Below, one piece after another: positions 1-63,650 of a stretch of DNA of 64,000 bases. The DNA comes from an uncultured Acidimicrobiaceae bacterium. Its GTDB lineage: Bacteria > Actinomycetota > Acidimicrobiia > Spongiisociales > UBA5794. Both the position numbers and the translations under genes were made by a program. The number at the start of each line of letters is the position of its first letter. Position 1 is the first letter of the stretch. The DNA lies in NCBI GenBank assembly GCA_964579415.1, contig CAZOGW010000002.1:14612-78611 (forward strand), read 5' to 3'. Below the pieces are notes generated by a model. It worked only from the letters and a program-made list of their open reading frames with translations, was not told the origin of the DNA and made no database searches.

Positions 1-135
1 TTCGTCCTGGGCGATCAGCGGGCCCGCTCCGCCGACGACAGCCGCCACCTCGGCCCCGTGCCCACAGCCGGCATGTGGCGCGGCGTGGCCCGCTACTGGC
101 CGCCAGGACGTGTGGGACTCCTCTGAAGAACGGGA

Positions 136-163
136 GTACTTGGTACTTGGTACTTGGTACTTG
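136..163. repeat. Tandem heptamer array (GTACTTG)x4, followed by GGGGTGG; left arm of an inverted pair whose partner is at 819-846
   Basis: Read directly: gtacttggtacttggtacttggtacttggggg. The reverse complement occurs at 819-846. Confidence 0.9.
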
Positions 164-174
164 GGGGTGGAGAC

Positions 175-828
175 TCAATGGGATGATGCGTCGAGAAGGA
201 CGTCGATGGCGTGATGGGTCTCGCCCTCGAGCTGCACAGGGCGGGCGACTCGTTCCAGGCGGTCGATGTGGAGAGAGGCGAAGTCGGTGCGGAGTTGCTC
301 CTCGTCGTAGAGCACCTCGGGGATCTGGGGACCCCCCACACCCTCGGTGAGGTTGTCGCGGTGGTGAGCGACGAGGAACAGCCGGCCGCCGGGCGCGACT
401 GCCGCGGCGGCGCCCCGGTGGACCGACTCGCGTTGCGCCGGGACGAGTTGCAGGTACGACAGCAGCACCAGGTCGAAGGCCGCCGGCTGGGGTACCCACT
501 CCAGCAGGTCGGCGGCGACGGCATCGACGCGGAGACCGTTCTCGGTGGCGAGCCCACGCAGTCGGTCGATGGCCACGTCGGACAGATCGACGGCCGTGAC
601 GTCGTGGCCCTGCGCCGCCAGCCACAGCGAATTCCGGCCCTGTCCGGCCCCCAGGTCGAGCACCCGCCGCGGCTCGAGTCCGGACAGGCTCCCGGCGACG
701 AAGCGGTTCGGTTCCATGCCGAAAACGCTCACATCTTCGGAGTACCGCTCGTTCCAGTAGGCCCGCCGCTCGCCCGGCGTAGGCATCGTCCAACTCACCA
801 ACGAAGTATCCCACCCACCAAGTACCAA
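175..828 (-). CDS. Class I SAM-dependent methyltransferase, small stand-alone; the true start is probably internal near 784 (MPTPGERRAYWNERY)
   Basis: Motif VLDLGAGQGRNSLWLAAQGHDVTAVDLS (SAM-binding motif I with acidic residue after beta2) and a GGRLFL post-II motif. The ORF is bracketed by the inverted heptamer arrays. Confidence 0.75.
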   Translation of the reverse strand: MVLGGWDTSLVSWTMPTPGERRAYWNERYSEDVSVFGMEPNRFVAGSLSGLEPRRVLDLGAGQGRNSLWLAAQGHDVTAVDLSDVAIDRLRGLATENGLRVDAVAADLLEWVPQPAAFDLVLLSYLQLVPAQRESVHRGAAAAVAPGGRLFLVAHHRDNLTEGVGGPQIPEVLYDEEQLRTDFASLHIDRLERVARPVQLEGETHHAIDVLLDASSH

Positions 829-846
829 GTACCAAGTACCAAGTAC
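819..846. repeat. Tandem heptamer array (CAAGTAC)x4, the reverse complement of the 136-163 array; right arm of an inverted repeat flanking the methyltransferase gene
   Basis: Read directly: ccaccc-aagtaccaagtaccaagtaccaagtacc-tcc. Both arms carry a G/C-rich cap (GGGGTGG or CCACCC) on the inner side. Confidence 0.9.
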
Positions 847-966
847 CTCCCCATGTGACGATGCCTTGCCCTCCTGATGGAACCCACCCCCACCCCCATG
901 CGTCTCGCTTGTGGGTCTTCGCTACGAGTCCGGCGTCGTGAGCAACCACGGCACCACTAGCCTCCG

Positions 967-27482: not shown

Positions 27483-27529
27483 CCGGTCCGTTCAGATCCG
27501 GACGCCCATGCACGCACGGCTCTACCGGC

Positions 27530-27553
27530 CACTGGCTACTGGCTACTGGCTAC
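27530..27553. repeat. Tandem heptamer array (ACTGGCT / GGCTACT)x3 in a convergent intergenic region
   Basis: Read directly: ccactggctactggctactggctacgcc. Confidence 0.85.
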
Positions 27554-38599: not shown

Positions 38600-39726
38600 A
38601 GGGCATCGTCCCCGTAGCGGACAGGGTTGTTGCCGAGGCGCTCGACGTTGACCGACTCCGCCAGCCTGCGCAGGCCGGGCTCGTCGCCGATACCCACCTC
38701 TCCCAGCGACGCCGGAAGGTCGATCTCCCGCAGCAGGGCGTTGAATCGTTCCCGGGCGGTGCCTTCCGCAGCGGCTCCAAGCCGGGACCTGATCTCCTCC
38801 ATCACGGAGAGGTGGGTGGCCCGATCGACGGTGGCCTGGAGATCGGCGGGGTCGGCAGCGGAGTGGGCGTCGATGAAGGCGCCCAGCGTCAGTGCCACCG
38901 CGCTGCCATGGTTGACGCCGTAGCCCTTGGTGATGGCGTACGACAGGGCGTGGGCCGCCGTGGTCCTCGACACGTCGATGGCCTTGCCGGCGAGGTGGCT
39001 GCCGATGCTCATGGCGCGCGCCGAGTCGATGTCGGGTCGGTTAACAAAGGTCTCGATGGCGGGGAGGAGCAGGTCGAGGGCACGCCGGGCGCGGCGGCGG
39101 CTCCACGGCGAAGCGGCCGCCGCCCACAGGCTCTCGACCGCCTGGCACACTGCGTCGATGCCGGAGGTGGCCCGCTGGTGCGCCGAGCCGCTCATGGCGA
39201 GCCGGGGGTCGAGGACGATGTGGTCGGCGTACATCCCCGGCCCGGCGATGGAGAACTTCTCCTCACCGGAGTAGACGACGGCGAAGTGGGTGGCCTCGCT
39301 CCCCGAGCCGCTCGTGGTCGGCACCAGCACCAGCGAGCGGTCGCGGGAGGCGATCGTGCCACCTTCCCGGATGGTCGCTTCGAGCCGGTGCGTCGCCGTG
39401 GATCCGTAACCACACAGCAGCTTGGCCATGTCCATGGCGCTGCCTCCGCCGACACCCAGCACCAGGTCCGGCTCCCACTCGGCGGCCAGGGCCAGCCCCA
39501 CTGCCAGGTCGGCGGCGTCGGTGTTGGGGGCGAAGTCGCTCCAGCGGTGCACCTCGGCGACCGCCTCCAGCCCGGGCAACATGGCGGCGGCGCCGCTGGC
39601 CTCGAACGAGCGTCGCCCGCACACCAGCATGATCCGCCGTGCCTGCAGCGCCCGGGCGATCCCGGGAACATCGCCGGCGGCGCCGTCGCCGTAACTGGTT
39701 GGCACCTTGCGGGCCGGTTCCTTCAC
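38572..39726 (-). CDS. Iron-containing (group III) alcohol dehydrogenase; predicted phosphonoacetaldehyde reductase (PhpC/FomC-like)
   Basis: Fe-ADH family motifs (GGGSAMDMAK, GxxHxxxH-type metal region AHALSYAITKGYGVNHG). Translationally coupled (ATGA-type overlap) to the phosphonopyruvate decarboxylase gene. Confidence 0.7.
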   Translation of the reverse strand: MKEPARKVPTSYGDGAAGDVPGIARALQARRIMLVCGRRSFEASGAAAMLPGLEAVAEVHRWSDFAPNTDAADLAVGLALAAEWEPDLVLGVGGGSAMDMAKLLCGYGSTATHRLEATIREGGTIASRDRSLVLVPTTSGSGSEATHFAVVYSGEEKFSIAGPGMYADHIVLDPRLAMSGSAHQRATSGIDAVCQAVESLWAAAASPWSRRRARRALDLLLPAIETFVNRPDIDSARAMSIGSHLAGKAIDVSRTTAAHALSYAITKGYGVNHGSAVALTLGAFIDAHSAADPADLQATVDRATHLSVMEEIRSRLGAAAEGTARERFNALLREIDLPASLGEVGIGDEPGLRRLAESVNVERLGNNPVRYGDDALYRILLASA

Positions 39727-40859
39727 GGCGCCGGCTCGGCGAGCGCCTTCATGAAGGCTGCCTTGGAGTCGGCGGGTGAGCGGGTGGGGCGGCCCAGGTC
39801 GGAACGATGCCCGGGGCGGACCACCAGTTCCAGGAGGCTCGGCCCGCCACCGCGGCGCATCTCCGCCACGTTGCGTTCCAGGTCCGTCACCCCGGTCAGC
39901 GACCGCGCCCAGCGGTACCCGGCGGCGATGCCGAGCGCGGGCACGTCCACGACGTCGATCGACGTCGGCTGGCCGCCGACGCTGTCATGGACCCCGTTGT
40001 TGAACACGACGTGGAAGTAGTTGGCCGGGGCGTGATCTGCGATGACGGCGAGGCTGCCCATGTGCATGAGCAGCGCACCATCGCCGTCGAGGCACCACAC
40101 CTCGCGGTCCGGTTCGTCGAGGGCGACGCCGAGGGCGATCGAGGAGGCGTGGCCCATGCCGCCGACGGTGAGGAAGTCGAGAGCGCGGTCCTCCCCGGCG
40201 CCGCTGCGCAGCTCGAACAGCTCCCGGCTCAGCATCCCGGTGGTGGACACGATGACGGCATCGTCGCCCAACAACCCGACCAGAGCGCCCAGCGCCTCCT
40301 CCCGGGTGGGTACCGCGGCGTCGGGCGACGGGTCGACGGGCACGACCGGTGCGAAGGTCCCCTTCTCCACCAGGAGGACGAAGGGCCCGCTGCGCTCCTC
40401 GGCGAGCCGGACCGCTTCGGCCACGACCTGGGCCGCATCCTCCGGCTCCCGGGGCAGCACCGACCACGGCAGGTCCATGCCGTCCAGCATCGACGTCATG
40501 ACCCGTCCCTGCTTGACGTGCTGCGGCTCGTCCTTGACGCCGGGCTGGCCCCGCCAGCCGATCACCAGGAGCATGGGGACGCCGTAGACGTCGGGGTCGG
40601 CCAGCGACAGCAGCGGGTTCACCGTGTTCCCGGTCCCCGAGTTCTGCAGGTAGACGGCGGCAGGGCGGCCGGTGCGCAGGTAGTGGCCGATGGCGATGCC
40701 GACCGAGCCGCCCTCGTTGGCGGCGATGACGTGTCGCGAGCGGGGTAGCTCCGCCATGACGTGCCGCCCCAGTTCCTTGAGCAGGCTGTCGGGCACCCCG
40801 GTGAAGAACGTGATCCCCTGCGCTTCGAGCCAGGCGACGAAGTCCTCCGCTCGGATCAT
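39723..40859 (-). CDS. ppd: Phosphonopyruvate decarboxylase (TPP-dependent)
   Basis: 378 aa with a TPP pyrimidine-binding N-domain and a C-domain carrying the GDG(X)n NN-like motif ([17 protein letters not shown]...FNNG). Start [12 protein letters not shown] at 40859 overlaps the ppm stop by 4 nt. The annotated upstream extension to 41825 is a shadow frame. Confidence 0.8.
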
Positions 40860-42166
40860 GTGGCGTTCTCCGGGACGATGGTGAGCACCTCGGAGATGGG
40901 GGCGATCATCTGGTCGGCTTCGAGGGAGCGGCCGTGGGTGAGAACGCTCTCGGCGACGCGTCGCATCTGCGGGTAGGCGGCACGGAGCATGTGGTTGGCG
41001 TAGATCACGATGCGCACGCCGGCATCGGCCAGCTCGGCCTCGGTGACCTGGTTGTACGACGTGGGCACGGCGACGATGGGGACCTGCTTGGCGAACTTGG
41101 CGGCATGGGCGCAGAACTCGAACACCTCTTCGGGATCCCTGCGCCGGCTGTGGATCATGATCCCGTCGGCGCCGGCATCGACGTAGGCTTCGGCCCGCTC
41201 GACGGCGTCGTCGACTCCCTTGTCGAGGATCAGGCTCTCGATACGGGCGATCACCATGAAGTCGGAGGTGATCTGCGACTGCTTGCCGATGGCGATGCGG
41301 CCGCAGAAGTCCTCGATGGAGGACTGGGTCTGGGTGACGTCGGTACCGAAGAGCGAGTTGCGCTTGAGGCCTTCCTTGTCCTCGATGATCACCGCCGACA
41401 CTCCGAGGCGCTCCAGGGAGCGCACCGTGAAGGCGAAGTGCTCCGGCTTGCCGCCGGTGTCGCCGTCGAAGATGAGGGGCTTGGTGGTGACCTCGAACAA
41501 TTCGTTCACCATCTGCAGCCGGGAGCTGATGTCCACCGCCTCGATGTCGGGTTTGCCCCGGGAGGTGGAATCGGTCAGCGAGCTGGACCACATCCCGTCG
41601 AATTCGACGGTCCTCCCGTCGCGCTCCACCTGGGCGTTCTCGACGATGAGCCCGGACAGCCCGCTGTGGGCCTCCATGATGCGCACCACCGGCTTGTTGG
41701 CCAGCAGGCGCCCCAGGCGCGCCAGGCGGACGTTGGGTGTGGTCCCCACCTGTTTGATGGCGGCGTTGAGCTGGGTCGAGGAGATGCCCTCCGTGTAGGG
41801 GACCTCCACCAACTCCCCTCCCCACTCCGCCAGGGCGTCGATGACCCGCTGGCGGGTGTCCCGCTGCACGCCGCTGCGCCAGTCGTCTCCGTGCACCACG
41901 AAGTCGGGGCGGAGGCGCTGCAGGTTGGGGACGTAGTCCAGAGTCTCCTGGGCCACCACCACGGTCACGCCCTTGAGGTTCTCCACCACCGCCCGGCGCT
42001 GCTCGTAGGTCATGTGCGGCAGCCGCTTGTAGCCGGAGATGGCCCGGTCGGTGAGCAGGCCGACGGTGACGTCGCCGATCTCGGCGGCGCGTCGGAGGAT
42101 GTTGATGTGGCCGGGGTGGATGAGGTCGGCGCTCATGCCCACGTACACGCTGGGGCGGGTTGACAT
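40856..42166 (-). CDS. ppm: Bifunctional phosphonate cytidylyltransferase (PntC-like HxGH nucleotidyltransferase) fused to phosphoenolpyruvate phosphomutase (Ppm)
   Basis: N-terminal approximately 140 aa: [15 protein letters not shown] (HxGH) plus an RISSTQ-like region [10 protein letters not shown], i.e. the GlpT/TagD-type cytidylyltransferase fold. C-terminal PEP mutase: [16 protein letters not shown]...VIIEDK...IARIES. Start at ATG 42166 ([10 protein letters not shown]); the 746-aa annotated ORF upstream of this is a shadow frame. Confidence 0.85.
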
Positions 42167-42195
42167 GTCGGGTGCTCCGTTTCGGGGTTGGGTAT

Positions 42196-44964
42196 TCAGG
42201 TGATCTCGAACGGGGAGGGGATCGGGTAGAGGGAATCGAGGAGCGAACGAACCACCGCCGCCTGGCGGGCGTGGTCGATGTCGGTGTGGAGGGTGGCGTT
42301 GAGGCAGAAGTACGTCGGCCGCCGCGACACGATGTCGTGGACTCGCCGCGCCATGTCGGCCCGACCGGTGTCGAGATACACGTAGGCGCCGGACGGCTGC
42401 GGCCACTCCACCGCGGCGCCGGTGGCGACGCCGTAGAAGTGGGCGAACATGCTGGGGATGGCCAGGTCGGTGGCCGACCTGAACCGGGCGGCCCTGGTGC
42501 GGGTGTACTCCTCCGGGTAGCGGCGTTCCATCTCCTCCAGCACGGAGCGGCGCAGGGCGTGGGGGATGTGCTGGACCTTGCGGTCGAAGCGGATGCCGAA
42601 GTCCCGGGCGATGATGTCGGAGGCGTTGTAGGCGGCCCAGTCGGTGGGGATCGCGTCGGGACCCGGTCGCCCCTCGTAGATGTACTGGGTGGGGGCGAAC
42701 CGCACCTTGCTCAACCCGGCACGGGTGAAGAAGTCGTCGACGGTCACCTCCCGGCCCAGGAACACGTCGTCGTTGAAGTAGAGGAAGTGCTCTGCGACGC
42801 CGGGTACCCGGTGCAGGTTGGCCTCGATGGCCTGCGAGTTGAAGGTGGGCAGCACCGACGGGTCGGGGAAGACGTCCCGGTGGGATACCACCGAGATGCG
42901 CTCGTCGGAGGTGTCCAGCCAGGCCGGCACCTGGTCGGCGGTCACCAGGTGGATGTGGCGGACGAACGGGGCGTACATCCACACCGACCGCAGCGAGTAG
43001 CGCAGCTCGTCGCGGTCGATGAAACGCTCGGCGTTGTCGGCGCTGGTGAGCGAGGTTCCACCCGCACCGCTGTGGGCGGCATGGGCGCGGCGCCATTCCG
43101 GGTCGGCCGGGTCGACCCAGGTGTAGACGACGTCGACCTCGCCGACGGTGTGGTGGCGGCCGACGGAGCTCACCGGCCGGGTCGGGGGCGGTGCCCCCTC
43201 CAGCAGCTCGGGGAACTCTGCCGTCCAGTCGACTCGGGCGGCGCGTGGCTCCACTGTGATGACCCGCTGCTTGGCGGGAACCGGCGCCACGAACATCACC
43301 CCGAGGCCCTGCACGCGGGCGGCGCCCTGCGGGAGACCGCCCGGGGCCGGCCCGACGGCGATCGATCGGGCCGGGAAGAGGTCCTCGAAGGTGACGGTGC
43401 CCATACCGACCATGCGGGACCTGCGGTCGCCCCCCGCCAGGTGAACCACCAGCCCCGGGTAGTCCCGGCCCACCGCCACCAACACGTCACCGAGCATGCG
43501 CTTGTCCCGCTCGGCCACGGCGCACAGCGGCCTGCCGTCGACCTCGGCGACGGCAAAGGCGAGCCCGGCCTCTTTGGCCGCCGTGGCGAGGACGGCGGCC
43601 AGCGCACGGCGTTGCCGGTCCGGGGTGGCGCCGAGGGCCTTCACCACGGGAGGCACGGCGGGCGGCCTCGGAGAGGCGGCGCCGTCCGCCGCGGTGCCGG
43701 CTGCGGGCGTGCCGTCCGCCAGCTCGTCGACCTCCCGCTTGCGGGCCACCTGCAGGATGTCGTGCCACGTCTTGAGCAGCCGCGCCTCGATGCGGGGGTA
43801 GCGAGTCATGGTAAGGCGGGCGCGCTGCTTGGCGCGAAGGGTGACGTCGCCGATGCCTTTGGGCCGGCCGGCACGGAGGCGGCTGTTCTGCCGGGAGAGG
43901 TGGCGATTCTCCGTCTCGAGGCGGCGGTTGCGCCCCATCAGCTCCCTGGTGCGTGCCCGCACCTGCCAGCGGGCGAAGTCGTAGGGTTCGCCGTTGTCGA
44001 TCAGATCGACGATGGCGTCGGCGCACGCTCTCCCTGCCGTCCCGTGGTTGACGAAGAAGCGGTCGACGAAGCCGCGGTAGGCGGCGTCATCGGCGAGCCG
44101 GCTGCGGGCCTCGGCGACGGCATCGTCGAGGGGGCGGCCCGACTCCCACACCACGCCGAGGCCGGCCAGGTGGGAACGGTCGATGTCGGCGGCGGAGAGC
44201 CGGTGGTAGTCCTCCGCCTCGGGATCGGCGTCGCCCACCAGGACCAGCGGCCGCCGGGCGTAGAGGGCATCGAAGGCGGCGCCGGAGAAGTCGGTGATGA
44301 CGAAGTCGGCGGCGCCGATCAGTTCGGCGGGCGAACGGTCGGCGCCGACCAGGCTGCAGTTGGGGGGAAGGATTCCGGCGGCGCGGGGGTCTTCGGCGTG
44401 GTGGAGTTTCACGCTGATCTCGACGGGGAGGCCGGAGAGGCGGCGGCCCACCGCCTCCAGCGAGGACAGCGACCCGTAGGTGGGCAGGTAGAGGCCCTTC
44501 GCCGATCCGCCCTGTGGCGCAGGCGGCAGTCCCCCGGCGAGAAGCTCGTCGAACAGGGGGTTGCCCACGGCCCGGGCGTGGGCGAACCCGGCAACCCGGT
44601 CCACCGAGTACGGCCCGTACATGAGATTGGCGTTGGCCAGGGAGCGCCACACGCCGTACTGGTAGGTCTCCTTGCCCAGGCTGTACTGCTGCGCAACCAC
44701 CAGCGACCGCTCCAGGAGGGCGTTGGGGAGGACCGGCGTCTGGCACACGATCACATCGAAACGGCCGTCGAGGGTCCGCAGATGCTGCTTGGGGACCCAT
44801 TCCACGGTGGCGGCGGGCAGGTGTGCCCGGATGAAGGCCTCATCGACCTCGAAGTCACGGTCGCGCGTCTCAATGACGAACGTCGACGCCCCCAGCGCGG
44901 CCGCGATGGGTCGGTAATGGTGGACCTGATACCGGTTGGTGATGAGGAATGCGATACGTGTCAT
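42196..44964 (-). CDS. Fusion of a TagF-like glycerophosphotransferase-family domain, a coiled-coil linker, and a C-terminal Stealth (CR1-CR4) hexose-1-phosphotransferase domain
   Basis: TagF-like: [13 protein letters not shown]...[14 protein letters not shown]. Stealth CR1-CR4: [46 protein letters not shown]...[32 protein letters not shown]. Confidence 0.8.
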
Positions 44965-45075
44965 CGTCCGCTGCGCGAGTCGAACCGGCGGCCAGACCAG
45001 GGGGATCCACCGGGGGAAACCCCGAGTTTACCTCAGCGTCATTTCCAAGGCATCATCATGCGGCGTCCGCTCACG

Positions 45076-46785
45076 TCAACGCTCCCAGGGCGACGCCACC
45101 GGGAAGTACTCGCCGAGGAAAGCTCCGAGCCGGGCCGCCGCCGCGGGCGGATCGGTCTCCCATCGTTCGGTGGCGTTGATGCACACGACGTCGAGGTCCC
45201 GGCCCAGCGAAACCCGGCGCAGGAAGGTGCCGAGGCGGCGGCTCCCCAGGTTCTGGTAGGCGATGCGCAGCTCGCCGGGCACGGCGCGCCCCGTGCTGAA
45301 TGCGTAGTGGTGGGCAAAGGCCGAGGCCACCGACAGGTCGTCGCTGCTGCGGAAGCGGTGGCGCGCCGTGGCCTCCATGGCCTCGGGGAAGCGCTCCTCG
45401 ATCTCGAAGAGGACGCTGCGCAGCAGCGGGTACGGGGCATGGTGCAGCTTGCGTCCCACCACCGAGCCGAACTCGCCCTCGATGAGTCGGCGCCCGGTGC
45501 GTGCCGCCGCGTCGGCGGCGAGCGCCTCGCCTGCGCCCCCGGCGGGAAGTGGGATGCGGGCCTCGCTCTCGAAGAACCGGCTCAGGCCGTTGGCGGTGAA
45601 GAAGGCCTCGGGGGTGAGCGGGCGACCCAGCAGCATGTCGTCGTTGAAGTACACGAAGTGCTCGGCGAGCCCCTCGATGTGGTGGAGCCGGGCCTCGATG
45701 GCGTGCGAGTTGAACGTGGGCAGCCAGTCGCCGGGGAAGATGTCGCGATGTGACACCACGGTGAGCCCGTCGTCGGGCGCCAGCCAGGCGGGGACCTGGT
45801 CGGCGGTGACCAGGTAGATGTGGCGCACCCACCCGGCGTTGAGCCACAGCGACCTCAACGAGTAGCGCAGCTCGTCGAAGGAGGCGAACCGGGAAGGATC
45901 CACGGCGTCGGCGGCGCGTGCGCTCCCCTGGGCCGGGGACCAGCGGTCGAACCGGTCCCGCCAGGTGGGATCGGAGCTGTCGACCCAGGTGTAGACCACG
46001 TCGATCGGGTCGCGGAACTGCAGCAGGCCGCGCCCCACCGGGAATGCCGTCAGGCCCGGGTAGTCGTTCCCCGCCACCGACTCGGTGGTGGGCTCGGCGG
46101 ACCGCTCGAAGCGGTTGAGGCCGCGGTGGCCGAGTCGCTCCATCCGGTCACCCGAAGCCGTCCAGAAGCTGATCAGGATTCCGTCGTCCGGGCCCACCAC
46201 CGCGTCGGGACCGATGCTCAGGCAGCGAAAGAGCACCCAGGACTCGGCGCGCCGGGCACGGCGGCGGGTGCCCCGCGCCCGCAGCAGCCCGGTGTGGTGG
46301 CGACCGCCCCGCCGCCACCGGAGGTACCAGGCCTCGGTGGGATCGGCCCCGCTCAGGGCGCCCAGGGCGGCAGCGCGGTCGCCGGCAGGGAGCCCGAAGT
46401 GGAGTCGGCCGCCGTCGGTGTCGACGAGGAAGGGATGCAGGCCGGCCCGCTCCAGGCGGGGCAGCAACGATCCTGCGAACCCGTGGGGCAACTCGGACCG
46501 GGGTCGGTCGATGGTGCCGGTTGCCACCCAGCGCCGCCACTCGCCGGTGGCGGCAACGGTGCGACCACGCCATGCCCGCGGCCCGCCGTTAGGTGGCAGC
46601 AGGCGGGCCGTCACCCGCTGCAGCGCGGCCCTCAGCTCGAGCCGCCACCTCTCGCCCAGCAGTCCCACCACCGGCTCGGGGAAGCGCCCGTCGAGGCGGC
46701 GCAACGCCAGCGCCCGGCGCAGCCGGCCGGCGACGGTGCGGAGCCGTGCGGTGAAGACGCCGGCTCCCTCACTCTTGGGAGTCAT
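45076..46785 (-). CDS. Stealth-family hexose-1-phosphotransferase (second paralog, no TagF domain)
   Basis: [46 protein letters not shown]...PTFNSHAIEARLHHIEGLAEHFVYFNDDMLLG. Confidence 0.8.
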   Translation of the reverse strand: MTPKSEGAGVFTARLRTVAGRLRRALALRRLDGRFPEPVVGLLGERWRLELRAALQRVTARLLPPNGGPRAWRGRTVAATGEWRRWVATGTIDRPRSELPHGFAGSLLPRLERAGLHPFLVDTDGGRLHFGLPAGDRAAALGALSGADPTEAWYLRWRRGGRHHTGLLRARGTRRRARRAESWVLFRCLSIGPDAVVGPDDGILISFWTASGDRMERLGHRGLNRFERSAEPTTESVAGNDYPGLTAFPVGRGLLQFRDPIDVVYTWVDSSDPTWRDRFDRWSPAQGSARAADAVDPSRFASFDELRYSLRSLWLNAGWVRHIYLVTADQVPAWLAPDDGLTVVSHRDIFPGDWLPTFNSHAIEARLHHIEGLAEHFVYFNDDMLLGRPLTPEAFFTANGLSRFFESEARIPLPAGGAGEALAADAAARTGRRLIEGEFGSVVGRKLHHAPYPLLRSVLFEIEERFPEAMEATARHRFRSSDDLSVASAFAHHYAFSTGRAVPGELRIAYQNLGSRRLGTFLRRVSLGRDLDVVCINATERWETDPPAAAARLGAFLGEYFPVASPWER

Positions 46786-48633: not shown

Positions 48634-49929
48634 ATGAGGCTCCTGGCGATTGCCCTTTCGGTGCTGGTGGCGCTGACAGGGCTCGGCGGCTCCGTCGCGT
48701 CCGCCGCACAGGGGGACGACGAGCGTCGGCGCATCGGATATCTGGCGGGTGACGAGGGGAAGGATTGGCACCTGAAGCACTTCCCGGTGCCGCACCGCAA
48801 GGTGGTCGGCTCGGAGTCGTACTACCTCACCTTCGACGACGCCCAGACCGAGAACACGGTCGCGCTTCTCGATGGGCTGAAGGCATGGCCGGACGTCAAG
48901 ATCACGTTCTTCGTCAACTGCTACGAGATGAGCCCCGGCGTCTACCAGCGCATCCTCGACGAGGGCCATGCGATCGGGAATCACACCTGCAACCACGTCC
49001 CTCTCACCGAGCTCGGCAAGCAGGGACGCACCGAACAGTTCGACAAGCTGCGTCGCTTCGTGATGGCGCGTGTGGATCCCGACAAGGCCATTGGCTGTTA
49101 TCGGCCCCCGTTCGGGCTCACCAGCGACTCGGTGCGCGATCACGCCTGGAACTCGCTGGATCTTTACGAATGGGGATGGAACGTCAATACCGAGGACTAC
49201 GAGTACCCCGGGACCGCAGCCATCCAGCATGACCTCGACACCATGCGCGCCGGCGATATCGCTCTCATGCACACGTCGAGAGGCAAGTCGGCGACGGTGC
49301 AGGCGACGTTGAGCCACCTGGCCCGGTATGCCGGGATGCGGTCGTACGAGGTCCTTCCCGGGTGCGCCACGTATGCGCCGCCTCTCTGCCAGGGCAGGCC
49401 TGCCACCATCGTGGGGACGCCGAAAGGGGACCGGATCAAAGGCACGTCCGGCGACGATGTGATCTGGGCCGGTCCCGGCGACGACGTCGTCCATGCCCTG
49501 GCCGGTGATGACATCGTCTGCGGCGGCGGGGGTTCCGACGTCATCCACGGCGGGCCCGGAGACGACGTGCTGTCGGGGGAGAAGGGGAAGGACGTTCTGC
49601 GGGGCGGTCCCGGTAGCGACCTGTTGGATGGTGACACCGGCGCCGACCGGCTCTACGGAGGAAGGGGCAGCGACACGCTGCGCGGCCGTACCGGCTCCGA
49701 CCGGCTCTGGGGCGGTCCCGGAGCGGACCACCTGTACGGCGGCAAGGGAGCCGACCACCTGCGCGGCAACGCCGGCGACGACCGGCTGGTGGGAGGACCC
49801 GGAAGCGACCACCTCCGCGGCGGCAAGGGAGCCGACATATTGCGCGGTGGCGCAGGCACCGACATCTGTATCGGTGGACCGGGAGCGGATGCCGGACATC
49901 TCTGCGAGACGACGGTATCCATCCTCTGA
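48634..49929 (+). CDS. Secreted CE4 (NodB-homology) polysaccharide deacetylase fused to a C-terminal RTX beta-roll
   Basis: Signal peptide MRLLAIALSVLVALTGLGGSVASA; CE4 motifs TFDDA and GNHTCNH; N-cap CQGRPATIVGTPKGD; about 18 GGxGxD repeats; terminal CIGGPGADAGHLCETTVSIL. Confidence 0.8.
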   Translation: MRLLAIALSVLVALTGLGGSVASAAQGDDERRRIGYLAGDEGKDWHLKHFPVPHRKVVGSESYYLTFDDAQTENTVALLDGLKAWPDVKITFFVNCYEMSPGVYQRILDEGHAIGNHTCNHVPLTELGKQGRTEQFDKLRRFVMARVDPDKAIGCYRPPFGLTSDSVRDHAWNSLDLYEWGWNVNTEDYEYPGTAAIQHDLDTMRAGDIALMHTSRGKSATVQATLSHLARYAGMRSYEVLPGCATYAPPLCQGRPATIVGTPKGDRIKGTSGDDVIWAGPGDDVVHALAGDDIVCGGGGSDVIHGGPGDDVLSGEKGKDVLRGGPGSDLLDGDTGADRLYGGRGSDTLRGRTGSDRLWGGPGADHLYGGKGADHLRGNAGDDRLVGGPGSDHLRGGKGADILRGGAGTDICIGGPGADAGHLCETTVSIL

Positions 49930-52600: not shown

Positions 52601-52653
52601 CCTCACGATTCTACCGGGGGCTGCGCGAAGCCCGAGCTTTGTGCAACGCGGGG

Positions 52654-52716
52654 AGGTACTTGGTACTTGGTACTTGGTAAGGCACGGATACCAAGTACCA
52701 AGTACCAAGTACCTCC
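52654..52716. repeat. Perfect palindrome: (GTACTTG)x3-containing 27-bp stem, 9-nt loop (aggcacgga), then reverse-complement arm
   Basis: Read directly: gaggtacttggtacttggtacttggta-aggcacgga-taccaagtaccaagtaccaagtacctc. It lies between the rmlD stop (52758, minus) and the PGT start (52600, minus). Confidence 0.9.
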
Positions 52717-52757
52717 GCGCGACAAGACAAGATTGCTGGACCTCAAACACCCCTGGC

Positions 52758-57210: not shown

Positions 57211-58860
57211 TCAGGGGGCGCACACCACGGCACCGATGATCAGGTAGCCGGTGGCGGTGACCGCGTAGGGGTTGGCGGCGCGGACCTTCGGGTACTGCGA
57301 CGCCGGGAGCCCGAGGCGGACGGTCACCGACGCCCAGCCCTCCCCCTTCTTCACGCTGACGCAGGGTCGGTCGGTGACTCGCGCCTTCAACGTGAAGTAG
57401 GCCGACTTGAGGCCGAAGGTGGAGCGTACCCAGGCGCCGGAGCGCTCCACGGTGGCGGGCTTGCCGTCCTTGTAACCGGAGAACTCCACGGTCTTCGCCG
57501 AACCGCCGGCGGTGCGCGCCTTCACCTTCACCGACCCGACCTCGTCGAGACCGGTGGCCTTCTCCACGTCGGCGACTGCCACCGAAGCCCGCCACGAGGC
57601 GTTGGGGTTGGGGACGCTGCCGTCGACGGCCCAGACGTCGTTCACCGACTTGTAGTAGGGCACGGGCGGGGAGACCCGGACGTCCTGGATGCTTTCGGTG
57701 CGGCCGCCGGTCGACGAGCTGTAGTAGGCGCGCACTATCCCCTGCTGGGGAGCCTTCGGGTGGGTGACGACGACATCGGCGGTGGACGACACCGCCTCGG
57801 CCCAGTTCGCCTGGAGGTGACCGTAGCCGACGTAGCGCTGGTCCCAGGTGGTGTCACGCACGTGGCAGAAGGCGTCACAGACGTTGGTGGAGAGCTTTCC
57901 CCGGGTTAGCTGGAGCTCTCTGGCGTAGGACCGGGCGGCGACCGCCTGCGCCCGTAGCGCCGCCATCCCCTTCCCCGAGCCCCAGTGATAGGGCATCTCG
58001 GAGATGCCGAGCAGGTAGTCCTCGAGGCGCAGACGAACCGAGAGGTCCAGGCCGCCGGGACCGGACCTGAGATGGAGCTTGCCGTGGGCGTAGCGGCACC
58101 CGCGCGACACCGAGGGGATGACGTTCCAGTCGGTGTTGGTGCAGCCGATGACGGCGACGGCGGTCTTCGGCTTGGCGCCGGCTCGGTTCCACCGGTACCA
58201 GGAGAAGTCGAAGTTGCACGGCCCTGAGGAGATCTCGGTCTTCTTCCCGCTCGGCCCGGTGATGGTGAGGGCACATGTGCTCGACCCCCTGATGGTGATG
58301 GTGCTGCCCGGCGGCGCCGACCACTCGTCGTCGCCCCGGGTGATGACCACCGGCTTGCCTTCACCCGAGATGGCGTCGACGCGCAGCTTCTTCGACGTGA
58401 AGTCCTGCTCCAGGTTCACCACGATGGGCGAGGTGGCGTCGCGGCGGCCGGTCCCCAGCTTTCGCGTCTTCGATGCGGCGTAGTAGTGCCCCAGGATCAC
58501 CCGGTAGCTCTTGCCCTTGAGCGCCATGGCATAGGCGCCCCACTGCGACATGCCGAGGCCGTGGCCCCACCCCTTGCCGTCGAAGTCGAGGGCACGCATC
58601 ACCTTCCTCTCGACCGGCTGCCCGCCCGTTCCGTCGGGCTGTGCCACCACCCCGATTGCGGGCAGCAGCAGAGCCACCACGACCATCACGATCAGCACGG
58701 CACGGCGTCCCACCGCAGGCAACCTAGTGGTCCGTCGCCCATATGACGATCGGGCGCGGCATCCCGGGGACGGATCGGCACCCAGCCCGCGGGGTTCGGA
58801 CCTCCACGGCGCCCCGGCGAGGAATGGGTCGGCCGCACCGGTGTGCCCGGCGGTTCCCAT
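57211..58860 (-). CDS. SpoIID/LytB-domain protein (amidase enhancer-like) with one C-terminal Cys-framed LysM-like domain
   Basis: SpoIID core (GKGWGHGLGMSQWGAYAMA...RAYYSSSTGGRTE). C-terminal CVSVKKGEGWASVTVRLGLPASQYPKVRAANPYAVTATGYLIIGAVVCAP. One TM or signal anchor; the start may be the internal GTG near 58713. Confidence 0.7.
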   Translation of the reverse strand: MGTAGHTGAADPFLAGAPWRSEPRGLGADPSPGCRARSSYGRRTTRLPAVGRRAVLIVMVVVALLLPAIGVVAQPDGTGGQPVERKVMRALDFDGKGWGHGLGMSQWGAYAMALKGKSYRVILGHYYAASKTRKLGTGRRDATSPIVVNLEQDFTSKKLRVDAISGEGKPVVITRGDDEWSAPPGSTITIRGSSTCALTITGPSGKKTEISSGPCNFDFSWYRWNRAGAKPKTAVAVIGCTNTDWNVIPSVSRGCRYAHGKLHLRSGPGGLDLSVRLRLEDYLLGISEMPYHWGSGKGMAALRAQAVAARSYARELQLTRGKLSTNVCDAFCHVRDTTWDQRYVGYGHLQANWAEAVSSTADVVVTHPKAPQQGIVRAYYSSSTGGRTESIQDVRVSPPVPYYKSVNDVWAVDGSVPNPNASWRASVAVADVEKATGLDEVGSVKVKARTAGGSAKTVEFSGYKDGKPATVERSGAWVRSTFGLKSAYFTLKARVTDRPCVSVKKGEGWASVTVRLGLPASQYPKVRAANPYAVTATGYLIIGAVVCAP

Positions 58861-58919
58861 CGGTACTCTCCTCGACGACGCAGCGGGGAGGGGCTCGCTG
58901 CGACACGAAGGGGTCCCGC

Positions 58920-60371
58920 ATGTCTCGCATTGCCCAGACGACCGGCCGCGATACGCGGCGGCGTCGCAACCGTCGCGTCCTGATCGTCACCGTGGCGCTG
59001 TGGGCCTTGCTGCCGGTGCATGCCGGCGGCGCCTCCGCTGGTGGTCACCAGCCGGAGGACGCCACGGTGGGTTCGGCGGCCGAACCCGAGGATCTCACCC
59101 GACCGCTCGCCGCCCCACAATCGGGCCCGGCTTCCACCGGCGGCAGGGCCGTGGTGTACTTCGGCATCGACGACGGGCCTTCCTGCTCCGACAAGGTGAC
59201 CTGGGGAATGCTCGACCTCTTCGCCCGCCACGGCGCAAGGGCCACCTGGTTCGTCACCGGCAATGTCAACTGCAACTCTGACGCTCTCCGGGCCATCGTG
59301 ACCGGCGGTCACGCGGTGGGAAGTCACACCTACGGCCACGACAACCTGACACGGCTCTCCCACGGGGCTCGCCTGGCCACCTTCGACAAGCTGCAGTCGG
59401 CTGTCACCCGGCACGGCGGCCCCAAGATGACCTGCTACCGGCCGCCCTACGGAGCCACCAACAGCTCGGTGCGGGCCTCGGCGGCCCAGCGTGGGATGGT
59501 GGAATGGCTGTGGAACGTCGACCCGCGCGACTGGAGCGACCCGGGCGTCTCCAAGATCCTCGCCAGCTTCAACCGGCTCGAGGACGGTGACGTGGTGGTG
59601 ATCCACGACGGCAACAGCAACCAGCAGACTCTCGACGCCCTGCGCATCTGGCTGCCCGCCAACGCCTCCCGGTTCGCGCTGAGGCCGCTCCCGGGGTGTG
59701 CCGCCGCAGAACCGCTGCGGTGCCAAGGCGAGCCGGCGACCATCATCGGGACCGACGGCGACGACATCCTTCAGGGCACACCGGGTAGGGACGTGATCTG
59801 GGGTGGGGAAGGCGACGACACCATCCGTGCGGGAGCGGGCGACGACGTCGTCTGCGGCGGGCCCGGCGACGACAAGATCTACGGCGAAGCCGGCAAGGAC
59901 ATACTGGCGGGAGGGCCGGGGAAGGATGATCTCATCGGCGGGCAAAACGCCGACACCCTCAAGGGAGGGCCGGGAGCGGACCGGCTGTGGGGCGGGAAGG
60001 GCGCCGACACGCTCAGCGGTGGTCCGGGCGCAGATGAGCTCTACGGCGGTCCCGGACCCGACACCCTCCGCGGCGGGTCCGGTGCCGACCAGTTGCGAGG
60101 AGGCAGTGGCGCCGACAGGATGTGGGGAAGCACCGGGCAGGACCTCCTGTCGGGTGGCTCCGGCGCCGACAGGATATGGGGGAACGCCGGGCGGGACCTC
60201 CTGTCGGGGGGACCCGGCGCCGACGTCTTAGCCGGGGGGGACGGGCACGACACGCTGGTGGGGGGCCGCGGGCCTGACGTCCTCAGAGGCGGGCCGGGCC
60301 GTGACACCTGCCGCGGCGGGCCGGGCATCGACAAGGCCACATCGTGCTCGACGGTGAGCAGCGTGCCCTGA
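58920..60371 (+). CDS. Secreted CE4 polysaccharide deacetylase fused to a C-terminal RTX beta-roll (paralog of 48634-49929)
   Basis: Signal peptide RRRRNRRVLIVTVALWALLPVHAGGASA; CE4 motifs (GIDDGP, GSHTYGHDN); N-cap CQGEPATIIGTDGDD; about 22 GGxGxD repeats; terminal CRGGPGIDKATSCSTVSSVP. Confidence 0.8.
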   Translation: MSRIAQTTGRDTRRRRNRRVLIVTVALWALLPVHAGGASAGGHQPEDATVGSAAEPEDLTRPLAAPQSGPASTGGRAVVYFGIDDGPSCSDKVTWGMLDLFARHGARATWFVTGNVNCNSDALRAIVTGGHAVGSHTYGHDNLTRLSHGARLATFDKLQSAVTRHGGPKMTCYRPPYGATNSSVRASAAQRGMVEWLWNVDPRDWSDPGVSKILASFNRLEDGDVVVIHDGNSNQQTLDALRIWLPANASRFALRPLPGCAAAEPLRCQGEPATIIGTDGDDILQGTPGRDVIWGGEGDDTIRAGAGDDVVCGGPGDDKIYGEAGKDILAGGPGKDDLIGGQNADTLKGGPGADRLWGGKGADTLSGGPGADELYGGPGPDTLRGGSGADQLRGGSGADRMWGSTGQDLLSGGSGADRIWGNAGRDLLSGGPGADVLAGGDGHDTLVGGRGPDVLRGGPGRDTCRGGPGIDKATSCSTVSSVP

Positions 60372-60406
60372 CCGGGCCGCGGCCTGGCGCGCTACGCTGC
60401 GGGCCC

Positions 60407-60835
60407 ATGCCGTCCGCTCGCTTCGTCCACGCCGCTATGTCCCCGCGCTCTCCTCGCGAGGTGTGGGACGGGCTCCAGGATGCGTCCACCTGGGCCAACA
60501 TCGGCCCGGTGGAGCAGGTGTGGGAACCAGTCCACGCCTCGGAGGCGCTGGTGTCCTTCAAGTGGCGGACCACCGTAGGCCCCACCCGCTATGACGGTGT
60601 CGCCAAGGTCGTCACTTCCGACCCCCTCCAGGCGATGGAGCTGAGCCTCGACGCCGGTGAAGTGACCGGATCGCTGCGCACCGACCTTGCCCCGGAGGCC
60701 ACGGGCACCCTCATCACGGTGACGCTGGTGGTGGTGTCCCGGGGACTGCTGTCGACGATGTTCTTCCCGGTCATCTCCGAGGCGGTGGGGAAAGGTCTCG
60801 CCGCCCAGGTGGAGCACTTCGCCGCGACGCTTTGA
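60407..60835 (+). CDS. SRPBCC (START/Bet v1/polyketide-cyclase-like) small protein
   Basis: 142 aa. The N-terminal RFVHAAMSPRSPREVWDGLQD pattern matches the SRPBCC beta1-alpha1 signature; it has a helix-grip-length C-terminal helix. Confidence 0.5.
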   Translation: MPSARFVHAAMSPRSPREVWDGLQDASTWANIGPVEQVWEPVHASEALVSFKWRTTVGPTRYDGVAKVVTSDPLQAMELSLDAGEVTGSLRTDLAPEATGTLITVTLVVVSRGLLSTMFFPVISEAVGKGLAAQVEHFAATL

Positions 60836-60836
60836 G

Positions 60837-60865
60837 AGGTACTAGGTACTAGGTACTAGGTAGGT
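60837..60865. repeat. Tandem heptamer array (GTACTAG)x3, a one-base variant of the GTACTTG arrays
   Basis: Read directly: gaggtactaggtactaggtactaggtagg, between two convergent stops (60835 and 60856). Confidence 0.85.
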
Positions 60866-63012
60866 GGGCATACCTTGGCGCCGGGTTTGAGGTGGCCGGC
60901 GGTATTTACCGCCTTGGGGTTGGCTGCCCGCACGTCGGGGTAGCGGTCCCACTTCAGCCCGAGCCGGATGGTGACGGCGACCCAGCCCTCACCGCTCTCG
61001 ACGGTGAGACATCTGTCCTTCTTGGGTGGGTTCGTCGGCTTGTCGTCGGTGGACGATCCGGGGGCGCAGACCTTGGCGCCCAGTTTGAGGAAGCCGGCGG
61101 AGTTGGCAGCCTTGGGGTTGGCCGTCCGCACCTCGGGGTAGCGGTCCCACTTCAGCCCGAGGCGCATCGTCACCGCAACCCAGCCCTCACCCTTCTTGAC
61201 CTTGACGCACTTGGCGTTCTTCGGGGGATCCTTGGGCTTGTCATCGGTCTTGTCGTCGTCGGTCGACGACCCGGGGGCGCACACCTTGGCCCCGATCTTG
61301 AGGTAGCCGGCGGCGTTCACCGCCTTCGGGTTGGCCTCACGCACCGCAGGAAGGTCCGAAGCAGGCAACCCCAGCCGGGCAACCACCTTCGACCAACCCT
61401 CGCCCTTCTTCACCTTGACGCACTTCTTGGGCGGGTCCTTGGGTTTGTCGTCTGTCGACGATCCGGGGGCGCATACCTTGGCCCCGATCTTGAGATGGCC
61501 GGCGGGGTTCACCGCCTTCGGGTTGGCCGCCCGCACCGCGGCGATATCCGAAGCAGGCAAGCCGAGCCGGGCAACCACCTTCGACCAACCCTCGCCCTTC
61601 TTCACCTTGACGCACTTGGTCGGGTCGGTGCCGTCCCCGTCGGGTGAGCTGCCGTAGGACACCGAGAAGTGGGTCGACTTGAGGTCGAAGGCCGAACGAA
61701 CCCAGGTGCCCTGACGCTCCACGGTCACAACCGCCCCGCCGCGGGTGCCGGTGAAGGCCACTGTGTGGGCGGAACCGCCGGCGGTGCGCCGGGTCACCTG
61801 CACCCCGTCAAGCCTGTCGAGCCCTGCGAGCCGGGCCACGGTCGACGCCGACGGTGAGGCGGTCCACGACCTGTGCGGGTTGCCAACGGTGCCGTCGATA
61901 GCCCACGAGTCGTTGACCGACTGCAGGTAGGGGATCGACGACCCGCCCCGGATCTCGTGGTACGCCTCGGTACGCCCGCCGGACGATGAGCTGAAGTAGG
62001 CGCGGACCACGGTCTGGTGCGGGGCCTTGGGATGCGAGACCACCAGTCCGGCGGTCGAGCGCACCGCATCGGTCCACGAGTCCTGGCCGTGACCGTAGCC
62101 CACGTAGCGCTGGTCCCAGGTGCTGTCGCGGACGTGGCAGTAGGCGGCACAGGCGTTGTCGCCCGCCGGGCCCCGGTAGATCATCAACTCCCTGGCATAG
62201 GAGCGGGCGGCGACCGCCTGGGCCTGGAGGGCGGCCATGCCCTTGCCCTTGCCCCAGTAGTAGGGCATCTCCGAGATCCCCAGCAGGTAGTCCTCGAGGC
62301 TGAGCTGGACGGAGAGATCGAGGCCGCCGGGCCCGGAGCGGAGGTGCAGCATGCCACGGGCGTAGCGGCACTCACGGGCCTTGGTGGGGCTGACGTTCCA
62401 GTCGCTGTTGGTGCAGCCGGCGATAGCCACCGCCGACCTGGGGTTCGCCTTGGGACTCTTCCAGTCGTACCAGACCAGGTCGAAGGCACACTTGCCCGAC
62501 GGGATCGTGGTGCTCTTTCCCTTGGGAGGCTTGATGACCAGGGAACACTCGCTGCCGCCGTCGATGGTGATGGTGCTGCCCGGCGGCGCCTTCCACGTCT
62601 TGTCCCCGCGGACGATCTTGACGGTGTCGCCGCTCCCGGAGATGGGGTCGACTCGGAGTGTCCTGGATCGGAAGTCCTGTTCCAGGTTGACCACGATCGG
62701 GGGCGACGCCTTGCGGCTCCCGGTACCCAGGGCGGCCACGGTGGAGCCGGTGAAGTAGTGCTCGACGATCTTGCGGAAGTCGGACCCCTTCATCGCCATG
62801 GCGTAGGCACCCCATTGCGACAGGCCGATGCCGTGGCCCCACCCGCTGCCCTTGAAGGCGACGGAGGCGGACGCCTGGGAGGCGGTGTCGGAGGTCCCCC
62901 CTTCCTCGGCTCGGGCACCCGGCGAAGGCGCTAGCAACATGAGCATGGCGGCCACCACGGCAACGACGAACGGGCGCACCGACCAAGACTCTCCCAATCT
63001 CATGGGAGTCAC
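60856..63012 (-). CDS. SpoIID/LytB-domain protein with four C-terminal Cys-framed LysM-like repeats separated by SSTDDKPKDPPK linkers
   Basis: Signal peptide (VVAVVAAMLMLLAPSPGARA) and SpoIID core (GSGWGHGIGLSQWGAYAMA...RAYFSSSSGGRTE). Four copies of C[VL][KT]V[KE][KS]GEGW..V..RLGL.....[AV]R.ANPKA.N.AG.LK.GAKVC.P. Confidence 0.75.
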   Translation of the reverse strand: MTPMRLGESWSVRPFVVAVVAAMLMLLAPSPGARAEEGGTSDTASQASASVAFKGSGWGHGIGLSQWGAYAMAMKGSDFRKIVEHYFTGSTVAALGTGSRKASPPIVVNLEQDFRSRTLRVDPISGSGDTVKIVRGDKTWKAPPGSTITIDGGSECSLVIKPPKGKSTTIPSGKCAFDLVWYDWKSPKANPRSAVAIAGCTNSDWNVSPTKARECRYARGMLHLRSGPGGLDLSVQLSLEDYLLGISEMPYYWGKGKGMAALQAQAVAARSYARELMIYRGPAGDNACAAYCHVRDSTWDQRYVGYGHGQDSWTDAVRSTAGLVVSHPKAPHQTVVRAYFSSSSGGRTEAYHEIRGGSSIPYLQSVNDSWAIDGTVGNPHRSWTASPSASTVARLAGLDRLDGVQVTRRTAGGSAHTVAFTGTRGGAVVTVERQGTWVRSAFDLKSTHFSVSYGSSPDGDGTDPTKCVKVKKGEGWSKVVARLGLPASDIAAVRAANPKAVNPAGHLKIGAKVCAPGSSTDDKPKDPPKKCVKVKKGEGWSKVVARLGLPASDLPAVREANPKAVNAAGYLKIGAKVCAPGSSTDDDKTDDKPKDPPKNAKCVKVKKGEGWVAVTMRLGLKWDRYPEVRTANPKAANSAGFLKLGAKVCAPGSSTDDKPTNPPKKDRCLTVESGEGWVAVTIRLGLKWDRYPDVRAANPKAVNTAGHLKPGAKVCPPT
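60900..61650. repeat. Four near-identical coding tandem repeats (about 160-185 nt unit) inside the SpoIID gene, encoding the LysM-like modules
   Basis: Long identical runs (e.g. ggtagcggtcccacttcagcccgag...; ccttcttcaccttgacgcacttg... recur). Conservation at the nucleotide level is higher than amino-acid constraint would need. Confidence 0.8.
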
Positions 63013-63044: not shown

Positions 63045-63630
63045 CCTGACCGCCGAAGCCGCGGGAGGGACGAAGCTTCTTCATCTCCCCCCGGGCTTTG
63101 ACGGGGGGAGTGGCCCGCCCGCAGGCTTTGCGGAGGGCGGGTCGAGGGGGGTCTTCATCGCTCACCCTCCCCCGGCTCGCAGCCAGCTCAACACGGACCT
63201 GGGACGAAGACCCCCTCCGTCCGATCGGATCGGAACGAGACTGCGGACGCGATGAGGTCTGATCGCGCCAGGTCAGCCGATCGGACACCTCCCCCGCCGA
63301 AGCGGCGGGGGAGGATGAAACCCGACCCCACGAAGCGGCGGGGGAGGACGAAGCTTCTTCATCTCCCCCCGGGCTTTGACGGGGGGAGTGGCCCGCCCGC
63401 AGGCTTTGCGGAGGGCGGGTCGAGGGGGGTCTTCATCGCTCACCCTCCCCCGGCTCGCAGCCAGCTCAACACGGACCTGGGACGAAGACCCCCTCCGTCC
63501 GATCGGCCTACGGCAAGACTGCACCACGCCATCAGGCGTCACTACGCCAGGCGAGCCGATCGGACACCTCCCCCGCCGAAGCGGCGGGGGAGGATGACAC
63601 CCGGCCCCACGAAGCGGCGGGGGAGGACGA
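63045..63630. repeat. About 280-bp direct repeat, roughly 2 copies, rich in nested perfect hairpins; non-coding, upstream of the SpoIID gene and downstream of atpC
   Basis: Unit 'gacgaagcttcttcatctccccccgggctttgacggggggagtggcccgcccgcaggctttgcggagggcgggtcgaggggggtc...ccgatcgg...tcggacacctcccccgccgaagcggcgggggaggatga' occurs at about 63066-63345 and 63346-63625. Hairpins: CCCCCCG/CGGGGGG, CCCGCCC/GGGCGGG, CCTCCCCCGCC-gaa-GCGGCGGGGGAGG (x4), and the GAAGCTTC palindrome. Confidence 0.85.
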
Positions 63631-63650
63631 AGACGACCGCAGCGCGCCTG

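Follow-up and report, generated by a model that had tools for sequence, protein, structure and literature searches.

Tandem heptanucleotides have been known since 1990 and 2007 to be over-represented in bacterial intergenic DNA. We know of no origin or function that has been accepted for these repeats. As a class, heptameric SSRs are over-represented between genes and little studied; three such heptamers were described in Calothrix, and pairs of heptamer arrays in inverted orientation were already noted (PMC4692102, PMC4679880). The GGGAATC repeats of Xanthomonas differ between close relatives and occasionally form inverted pairs (PMC4692102). In Beggiatoaceae, cyanobacteria and Bacteroidetes, TAACTGA repeats mostly share one orientation and lie just 5' of start codons, and roles in translational regulation and in rearrangement were proposed for them (PMC4679880). 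The heptamer repeats at Nostoc recF/recO alter reporter expression via an unknown partner (bioRxiv 10.1101/2022.06.06.494920), and RNase III cleaves a hairpin transcribed from the (ATCTTTC)n SSR of Haemophilus influenzae hmw1A (PMC12721329).

We studied heptamer arrays in a 64-kb stretch of DNA (the window, i.e., the whole stretch analysed) with a G+C content of ~70%, whose proteins had their best named homologs in Acidimicrobiia MAGs. Pfam and ORF analysis showed a large surface-glycan region containing rmlC, rmlA, rmlD, a phosphoglycosyltransferase gene (PGT, Bac_transf) and many glycosyltransferase genes, together with genes for Stealth proteins, phosphonate genes, NeuB and RTX-repeat proteins; the same analysis revealed no transposase, integrase, invertase, recombinase or RAYT among the window genes. 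TRF found six arrays of period 7 with 3.6-4.6 copies each and 88-100% matches, all of them thus made of at least three tandem heptamers. Five were perfect (136-164, 817-847, 52655-52679, 52689-52713 and 60837-60862), and that at 27522-27553 showed an 88% match. A search with the 14-mer GTACTTGGTACTTG allowing up to two mismatches gave 12 matches in the window versus 0.03 expected from shuffled sequences, and a looser search of the window revealed no additional copies. The coordinates of the features are given in Table 1.

Table 1 Repeat features of the window and the gene bracketed by one inverted pair
Feature	Coordinates	Strand	Description
Palindrome	52647..52721	.	GGAG(GTACTTG)3GTA, 9-nt loop, exact reverse complement
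Left arm	132..169	+	GGGA(GTACTTG)4GGGGGTG
Right arm	812..851	-	GGGAG(GTACTTG)4GTGGGTG on minus strand
Class I SAM-dependent methyltransferase gene	175..786	-	Bracketed by both arms
(GTACTAG)3.7 array	60837..60862	+	Fills the 20-nt gap between convergent genes
(CTACTGG) array	27522..27553	+	3.3 perfect copies, or 4.6 at 88%

A GT2 gene (stop at 27482) and a sulfotransferase-like gene (stop at 27598) converge on the array that the first-pass annotation had described, as 27530-27553, as a different heptamer. Its unit CTACTGG differs from GTACTGG by one base, and the array therefore belongs to the same repeat family as the others. The core of the repeat in the window is (G/C)TACTNG, with the AT-rich TACT present in all six arrays despite the 70% GC of the surrounding DNA. 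A 5' flank of GGAG or GAGAG was common to the five GTACTWG arrays and a GGTGGG-like 3' flank was found in three, which argues that the copies derived from one another and not from independent slippage. No target-site duplication was observed at any copy in the window. Taken singly, the window arrays showed no significant fold (z from -1.6 to +1.5), and the candidate reading of single arrays as local hairpins was rejected for this reason; since they do not fold, the family at large cannot serve in termination.

All the arrays lay in spacers between genes, six in 64 kb versus one in 357 kb of unselected related metagenome loci, where the only perfect heptamer array was of the TACTGGT type; in these terms the repeat is genome-specific. 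That control array (L146, 4540-4590; GCTACTG/GTTACTG units, like the window array at 27522) was located on an unrelated high-GC metagenome contig. In the window the sites comprised three convergent gene ends, one pair of divergent gene starts and one co-directional spacer, that of the palindrome. The statement that every site is an operon boundary thus applied to four of the five, i.e., the three convergent and the one divergent; the spacer of the hairpin, which has co-directional neighbours, is at most a putative operon boundary. Arrays occupied 3 of 8 convergent junctions versus 1 of 29 co-directional ones (p = 0.026). The (GTACTAG) array was indeed located at a convergent junction as first annotated, but not exactly between the two stop codons: the SpoIID-like gene on the minus strand has its TAG stop (60856-60858) within the array.

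The window arrays are members of an already described class, the intergenic tandem heptanucleotide repeats. The first-pass annotation had not recognised this class, which includes the STRR of cyanobacteria, TAACTGA of Beggiatoaceae and GGGAATC of Xanthomonas. Like the STRR of heterocystous cyanobacteria (e.g., CCCCAGT), they have 7-nt units in short tandem arrays at many intergenic loci, with several related units per genome, and neither group has an established function. Unlike the STRR, the window unit is (G/C)TACT(T/A/G)G in DNA of 70% GC from a probable Acidimicrobiia genome; STRR1-3 themselves (CCCCAGT, TTGGTCA and CAACAGT, of cyanobacterial hosts) were absent from the window, which places the arrays beside STRR1-3 proper and not among them. 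The TAACTGA repeats (MacGregor 2015, PMC4679880) also form arrays of 2-6 copies, mostly intergenic and patchily distributed across phyla, and include 'split' sets with related 7-mers for which a rearrangement role was suggested. They are, however, strongly 'forward' and end 1 nt 5' of start codons, whereas GTACTNG arrays had no strand bias (see below) and favoured sites after stop codons and between convergent genes. A further likeness is with GGGAATC and GGGGA(T/C)T, which in Xanthomonas and Nostoc (Rehm 2015, PMC4692102) are intergenic heptameric SSRs variable in length and sequence between close relatives, some of them in plus/minus-strand pairs able to form stem-loops or cruciforms; their units are G-rich and form G-quadruplexes, which GTACTNG cannot.

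Two other systems were also compared. REP, BIME and REPIN sequences are likewise intergenic, often at gene 3' ends, with a genome-specific distribution, and their inverted doublets are long hairpins able to block 3' exonucleases. A REP arm is itself an imperfect palindrome, contains a conserved 5' GTAG and relies on a RAYT (Y1 transposase), whereas the window arms are tandem heptamers with a GGAG flank, carry no GTAG and have no RAYT in the window, and we do not assign them to this group. The hmw1A (ATCTTTC)n tract (PMC12721329) shares the 7-nt unit and the hairpin, whose RNase III cleavage modulates expression. In hmw1A, a phase-variable contingency locus, at least 11 copies in the 5'-UTR pair with a G-rich region; in the window, the pairing is between two inverted arrays that have 3-4 copies each. 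No copy-number variation was observed here, the single same-species sequence (L313) being identical. A text search of the literature consulted found no relevant paper on GTACTNG dimers.

The palindrome occupies part of the 151 nt that separate rmlD (stop at 52758) from the PGT gene (start at 52606), two co-directional genes of the minus strand; it lies 41 nt past the rmlD stop, with the PGT start 45 nt downstream. It had been described as a 63-nt hairpin, and its site, perfection and 9-nt loop (52680-52688) were as reported, whereas the perfect stem proved to be of 28 bp (52652-52679 with 52689-52716) and not 27. Outward of the stem, one unpaired base on each side is followed by four further pairs (52647-52650 with 52718-52721). 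Its expected strength as an RNA hairpin or a cruciform was supported: predicted folding gave a dG of -60.9 kcal/mol as RNA (z -11.4 versus dinucleotide shuffles) and -40.5 kcal/mol as DNA (z -11.9). The proposed role as a terminator fared worse. A canonical intrinsic (Rho-independent) terminator consists of a G+C-rich stem-loop followed by a U-tract, and the palindrome lacked a T-run 3' of the stem on either strand; consensus scans gave 0 terminator sites and no promoter. Rfam gave 0 matches over the whole window at gathering thresholds, and at E-value thresholds the hairpin had just sub-threshold matches to animal miRNA precursors. The nearest rmlD genes were 63-67% identical and provided no usable ortholog of the hairpin site, and the PGT orthologs (at most 62% identical) had other upstream neighbours and no hairpin upstream.

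Directly downstream of the hairpin (52607-52625, minus strand) a TAGAAT hexamer was found 7 nt 5' of the PGT ATG. Given what actinobacterial promoters look like in general, it could be the -10 box of a leaderless transcript, with the PGT gene possibly transcribed from a promoter of its own. Other readings of the palindrome were rejected. An attC site, a protelomerase site or an HUH origin did not fit, with the GTTRRRY core absent, the palindrome not continuous across its centre and no Rep, integrase or resolvase gene nearby. A CRISPR array, already dismissed in the first-pass annotation, has repeats of 23-50 nt and unique spacers of similar length, whereas these units are of 7 nt, contiguous and without spacers.

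The second inverted pair brackets the methyltransferase gene, and its reported presence at 136-846 was confirmed by TRF. The left arm lies in the convergent spacer between the stop of an S26 peptidase gene (plus strand, 126-128) and the methyltransferase stop (minus strand, 175-177), and the right arm ~30 nt upstream of the methyltransferase start, also upstream of a divergent ECF sigma gene. The two arms, ~38 bp each, match outside the heptamers too; when a minus-strand transcript that includes both arms was folded, they paired in the MFE structure and contributed ~53 kcal/mol. There was no direct duplication at the outer ends of the pair.

Comparison with relatives pointed to a recent addition of the arrays at gene ends in this lineage. 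In L121, whose methyltransferase is 78% identical, the sigma upstream region, the methyltransferase gene and the convergent S26 gene have the same order and orientation as in the window, with zero arrays, and the S26-methyltransferase spacer is of 9 nt versus 46 nt in the window. The more distant L118-L120 (66% identical) had the same convergent arrangement and zero arrays. The methyltransferase gene therefore stands at its ancestral syntenic position, and the possibility that it was cargo of a composite transposon or MITE was discarded. In L117 (GCA_046128415.1; methyltransferase 77% identical) the order is S26 (+), methyltransferase (+), array, sigma gene. This array, the only one in L117, is orthologous to that at 817-847 and has the same orientation relative to the sigma gene, but different units: GTACTTG twice, GTACTAG twice and a degenerate unit. 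L117 was colinear with the window only after reverse-complementing the methyltransferase segment, a difference that amounts to a single-gene inversion, and the breakpoints were within a few nt of the array edges. The first-pass suggestion that the arrays are recombination sites gains support from this array-bracketed gene found inverted in a relative. Given that one inversion was seen and that L117 keeps one array, recombination between arrays is not the only path to the inverted state.

A contig of the same genome as L117 (L314) had, at the SRPBCC/SpoIID-like convergent junction, an unrelated 21-nt spacer and no array. In total, at orthologous spacers, three window arrays were missing and the fourth was kept in one relative; relatives differed both in the presence of arrays (missing in L121 and L314) and in their units (L117). 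This showed that arrays were added to or lost from spacers on a time scale of ~75% protein identity. Some library preparations yield perfect palindromes and the source is a metagenome-derived contig. It is therefore conceivable in principle that the palindrome is chimeric or that a repeat has collapsed, as artefacts of sequencing or assembly. The independent Logan assembly L313 (SRR16798009) was 100% identical over 3185 bp (window 58218-61402) including the 60837 array, an orthologous array occurs in another genome (L117), the flanking genes are intact and arrays of the same kind occur in more than 100 unrelated assemblies, all of which makes an artefact extremely improbable. Judged from these alignments, the arrays are lineage-specific additions to spacers and not products of the assembler.

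L314 also differed in gene order from window positions 57217-61137, with the deacetylase-RTX gene on the opposite side of the SpoIID paralog; the window junctions involved carry no arrays.

In a scan of species-representative genomes, arrays of three GTACTNG units were present at no fewer than 116 loci (at least 116), with a chance expectation of at most ~17 over the whole collection. The matches listed came from Acidobacteriota, Gemmatimonadales, Planctomycetota, Chloroflexia, cyanobacteria (Nostoc), Acidimicrobiia, Streptomyces, Bacteroidota and others, and among them GTACTNG loci also held other heptamer arrays, including the STRR1-like GGGACTG, which is STRR1 read as its reverse complement; GGGACTG and GGTACTG units were fused within one array in L058, L038, L061 and L079. 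Gene context was obtained, for loci with a GC content of at least 0.52, with a simple GC3-based caller made for this analysis and checked on the window; the gene-context statistics thus rest on a crude caller and on loci chosen through the pattern itself. Among the matches listed, 13 of 123 arrays overlapped a gene (~90% intergenic), and the genes flanking arrays were convergent in 19 cases, divergent in 6 and co-directional in 44, versus 64, 73 and 310 among control spacers. Convergent spacers were enriched (p = 0.008), and arrays in divergent spacers were fewer than expected (6 versus ~10.6), not significantly so (p = 0.11). In co-directional spacers, 23 of the arrays listed were sense and 21 antisense, i.e., there was no strand bias, and ~40% of the arrays listed started at most 15 nt from an upstream stop codon. 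The arrays were shown to lie almost only in spacers, preferentially convergent ones, with no strand preference.

A uniquely privileged status of GTACTNG was not supported: permuted units were equally common in viral contigs (GCTATNG 29, ATCGTNG 10 and GTCATNG 54 loci versus 18 for GTACTNG). In the cross-phylum set, positions 3-5 were conserved at 94-98% in non-seed units and variation was found mostly at positions 6-7. The N position was heterogeneous in 59 of 138 GTACTNG arrays (among the genome matches listed) versus 12 of 31 arrays of the control unit GCTATNG; a specific hypervariability of position 6 is no more than suggested by these numbers, since the search pattern let only position 6 vary and the control unit varies too.

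The reading that we consider somewhat better than evenly probable is that the arrays are STRR-like heptanucleotide repeats that evolve fast, are tolerated at transcript ends and are copied with a few flanking bases. They would be largely neutral or selfish repeat DNA, growing by slipped-strand mispairing, copied to new spacers along with those bases, and persisting where they do the least harm, i.e., at the ends of transcripts. The 28+4-bp hairpin would form in the rml transcript, where it may act as a barrier to 3' exonucleases, as a terminator without U-tract or as an RNase III cleavage site and would separate rmlCAD from the PGT gene; the palindrome DNA could extrude as a cruciform. The 38-bp inverted repeats around the methyltransferase gene would be a substrate for its inversion, a proposal consistent with the inverted state in L117. 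Two observations run against this repeat-DNA reading: the shared TACT core in DNA of 70% GC fits copying or selection better than slippage of an arbitrary heptamer, and selection, not recency, could be the reason why both inverted pairs are perfectly identical.

The main alternatives assign the arrays a selected or mechanistic role. The hairpin might be a selected cis-regulatory RNA, i.e., a U-tract-less ('I-shaped') terminator or an RNase III site that uncouples rmlCAD from the PGT and glycosyltransferase genes, while pairing of the arrays 5' and 3' of the methyltransferase gene would stabilise or gate its mRNA. The folding energy of the hairpin, its site shortly past the rmlD stop with a -10-like box before the PGT ATG, the pairing of the methyltransferase arms in the MFE fold and the RNase III cut of the H. 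influenzae heptamer hairpin (PMC12721329) all agree with such a role; it is nonetheless unlikely, with the T-run absent and the terminator scan negative, no hairpin upstream of PGT orthologs, the single arrays of the family unstructured, no strand bias in the family and only sub-threshold miRNA-precursor matches in Rfam. A protein that reads 7-nt or 7-bp repeats, either a nucleoid-associated or regulatory DNA-binding protein or a single-strand binder of the cold-shock-domain or HutP-like kind, would account for the TACT core of all window arrays and for the pattern of conserved positions 3-5 and variable positions 6-7 across phyla, and heptamer-binding partners were speculated upon in Nostoc and Beggiatoaceae (bioRxiv 10.1101/2022.06.06.494920; PMC4679880). 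Against it, part of the position-6 variability comes from ascertainment, as in GCTATNG, permuted heptamers had from 10 to 54 viral-contig matches versus 18, arrays were not kept at orthologous sites, and convergent stops were enriched while divergent promoter spacers held few arrays (not significantly so); the even sense to antisense ratio opposes in particular a reader specific to one RNA strand. We consider such a reader, which the first-pass annotation had suggested as a repeat-recognising regulator, very doubtful.

A third alternative takes GGAG-(GTACTWG)n for a very small non-autonomous element, either mobile or used in site-specific recombination. The methyltransferase pair would then be a programmed invertible switch operated by a recombinase from another locus, and the hairpin would be two such ends forming an 'empty' pair. 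At the methyltransferase locus we observed 38-bp inverted repeats and, between genomes, both orientations of the segment; no recombinase gene was found in the window. The sequence shared by the arms outside the heptamers, the arrays that look like insertions into very short spacers, the L117 breakpoints near array edges and the Acidobacteriota arrays flanking a conserved 48-nt core in a REP/MITE-like module (see below) point in this direction. Opposed to it are the lack of transposase, integrase and invertase genes in the window and of a target-site duplication at any copy, the ancestral position of the methyltransferase gene, which was not cargo, and the presence of one array only in L117; moreover, a gene-preserving inversion of any kind must break in these two spacers. 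Taken together, these points leave us giving little credence to the element. A related proposal treats GGAG-(GTACTWG)n as a recombinogenic or mobile module of minimal size and not as passive slippage DNA. It would be copied into short spacers, often in inverted form, and would drive single-gene inversions; its cross-phylum core GTACT-N-G, with a single free position, would be recognised by a widespread enzyme or binding protein, and the palindrome would be element ends with nothing between them. This strikes us as rather improbable.

On present evidence the GTACTNG array remains an ordinary repeat. The window adds an actinobacterial (probably Acidimicrobiia) case to the described heptamer repeats, of a unit family that recurs in many phyla, with direct comparative evidence of arrays arising de novo in spacers of as little as 9 nt and one example of a segment between inverted arrays that a relative has in the flipped state. 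Should arrays indeed favour inversions on the gene scale, or make strong RNA hairpins within surface-glycan operons, they would provide structural and regulatory variation at little cost.

At 12 non-window loci among the matches listed (L018, L023, L044, L051, L052, L057, L062, L066, L072, L084, L110 and L111), two arrays in inverted orientation were separated by less than 450 nt. All 12 pairs had the polarity (CNAGTAC)n...(GTACTNG)n, while both window pairs and the Acidimicrobiia locus L075 had the opposite one (binomial p = 0.035, uncorrected for relatedness). In Sulfotelmatobacter and other Terriglobales, arrays flank a conserved core of ~48 nt with GTCATTCC...GGAGGAATC in the order CNAGTAC-core-GTACTNG. 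Two copies of the resulting 89-nt module, inverted and 187 nt apart, were present in an orthologous intergenic region (L001, 4462-4550 and 4738-4826; also L016, L020 and L052); the motif was also found in L057, L076 and L116. The module looks like a REP/MITE-like carrier of arrays. An apparent location of Sulfotelmatobacter arrays at shuffled recombination junctions was dismissed, as the loci are colinear and the shuffling was produced by the internal 89-nt inverted repeat.

Further observations concern the gene content of the window. At 38572-46785, genes for a PEP mutase-cytidylyltransferase fusion, a TPP decarboxylase and an Fe-ADH adjoin those for two Stealth (CR1-CR4) proteins, which suggests that the product of the glycan cluster is a surface polymer decorated with phosphonate or sugar phosphate. 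RTX calcium-binding nonapeptide repeats were present in four proteins (9898-11154, 21124-23532, 48634-49929 and 59151-60371), fused to polysaccharide deacetylase, peptidase M15 or FG-GAP domains, and these repeats explain the DNA periodicities of 27, 54 and 81 nt seen by TRF. The SpoIID-domain protein (60856-63012, minus strand) has four tandem C-terminal repeats of ~64 aa, with DNA repeats of 198/192 nt that are 79-91% identical; its last codons and TAG stop are supplied by the heptamer array, and its L314 counterpart ends in GAKVCAP* without an array. The 637-nt spacer after this gene (63063-63632) contains two tandem copies of a ~279-nt unit, 99% identical over a 166-nt part and 89% over a 107-nt part. 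The unit is dense in G/C-rich hairpins such as CCTCCCCCGCCGAAGCGGCGGGGGAGG, and CGGCGGGGGAGG occurs six times at 63063-63632. Rfam matches in this spacer were sub-threshold only, and it presents a GGGGAGG motif like the 5' flank of the heptamer arrays.
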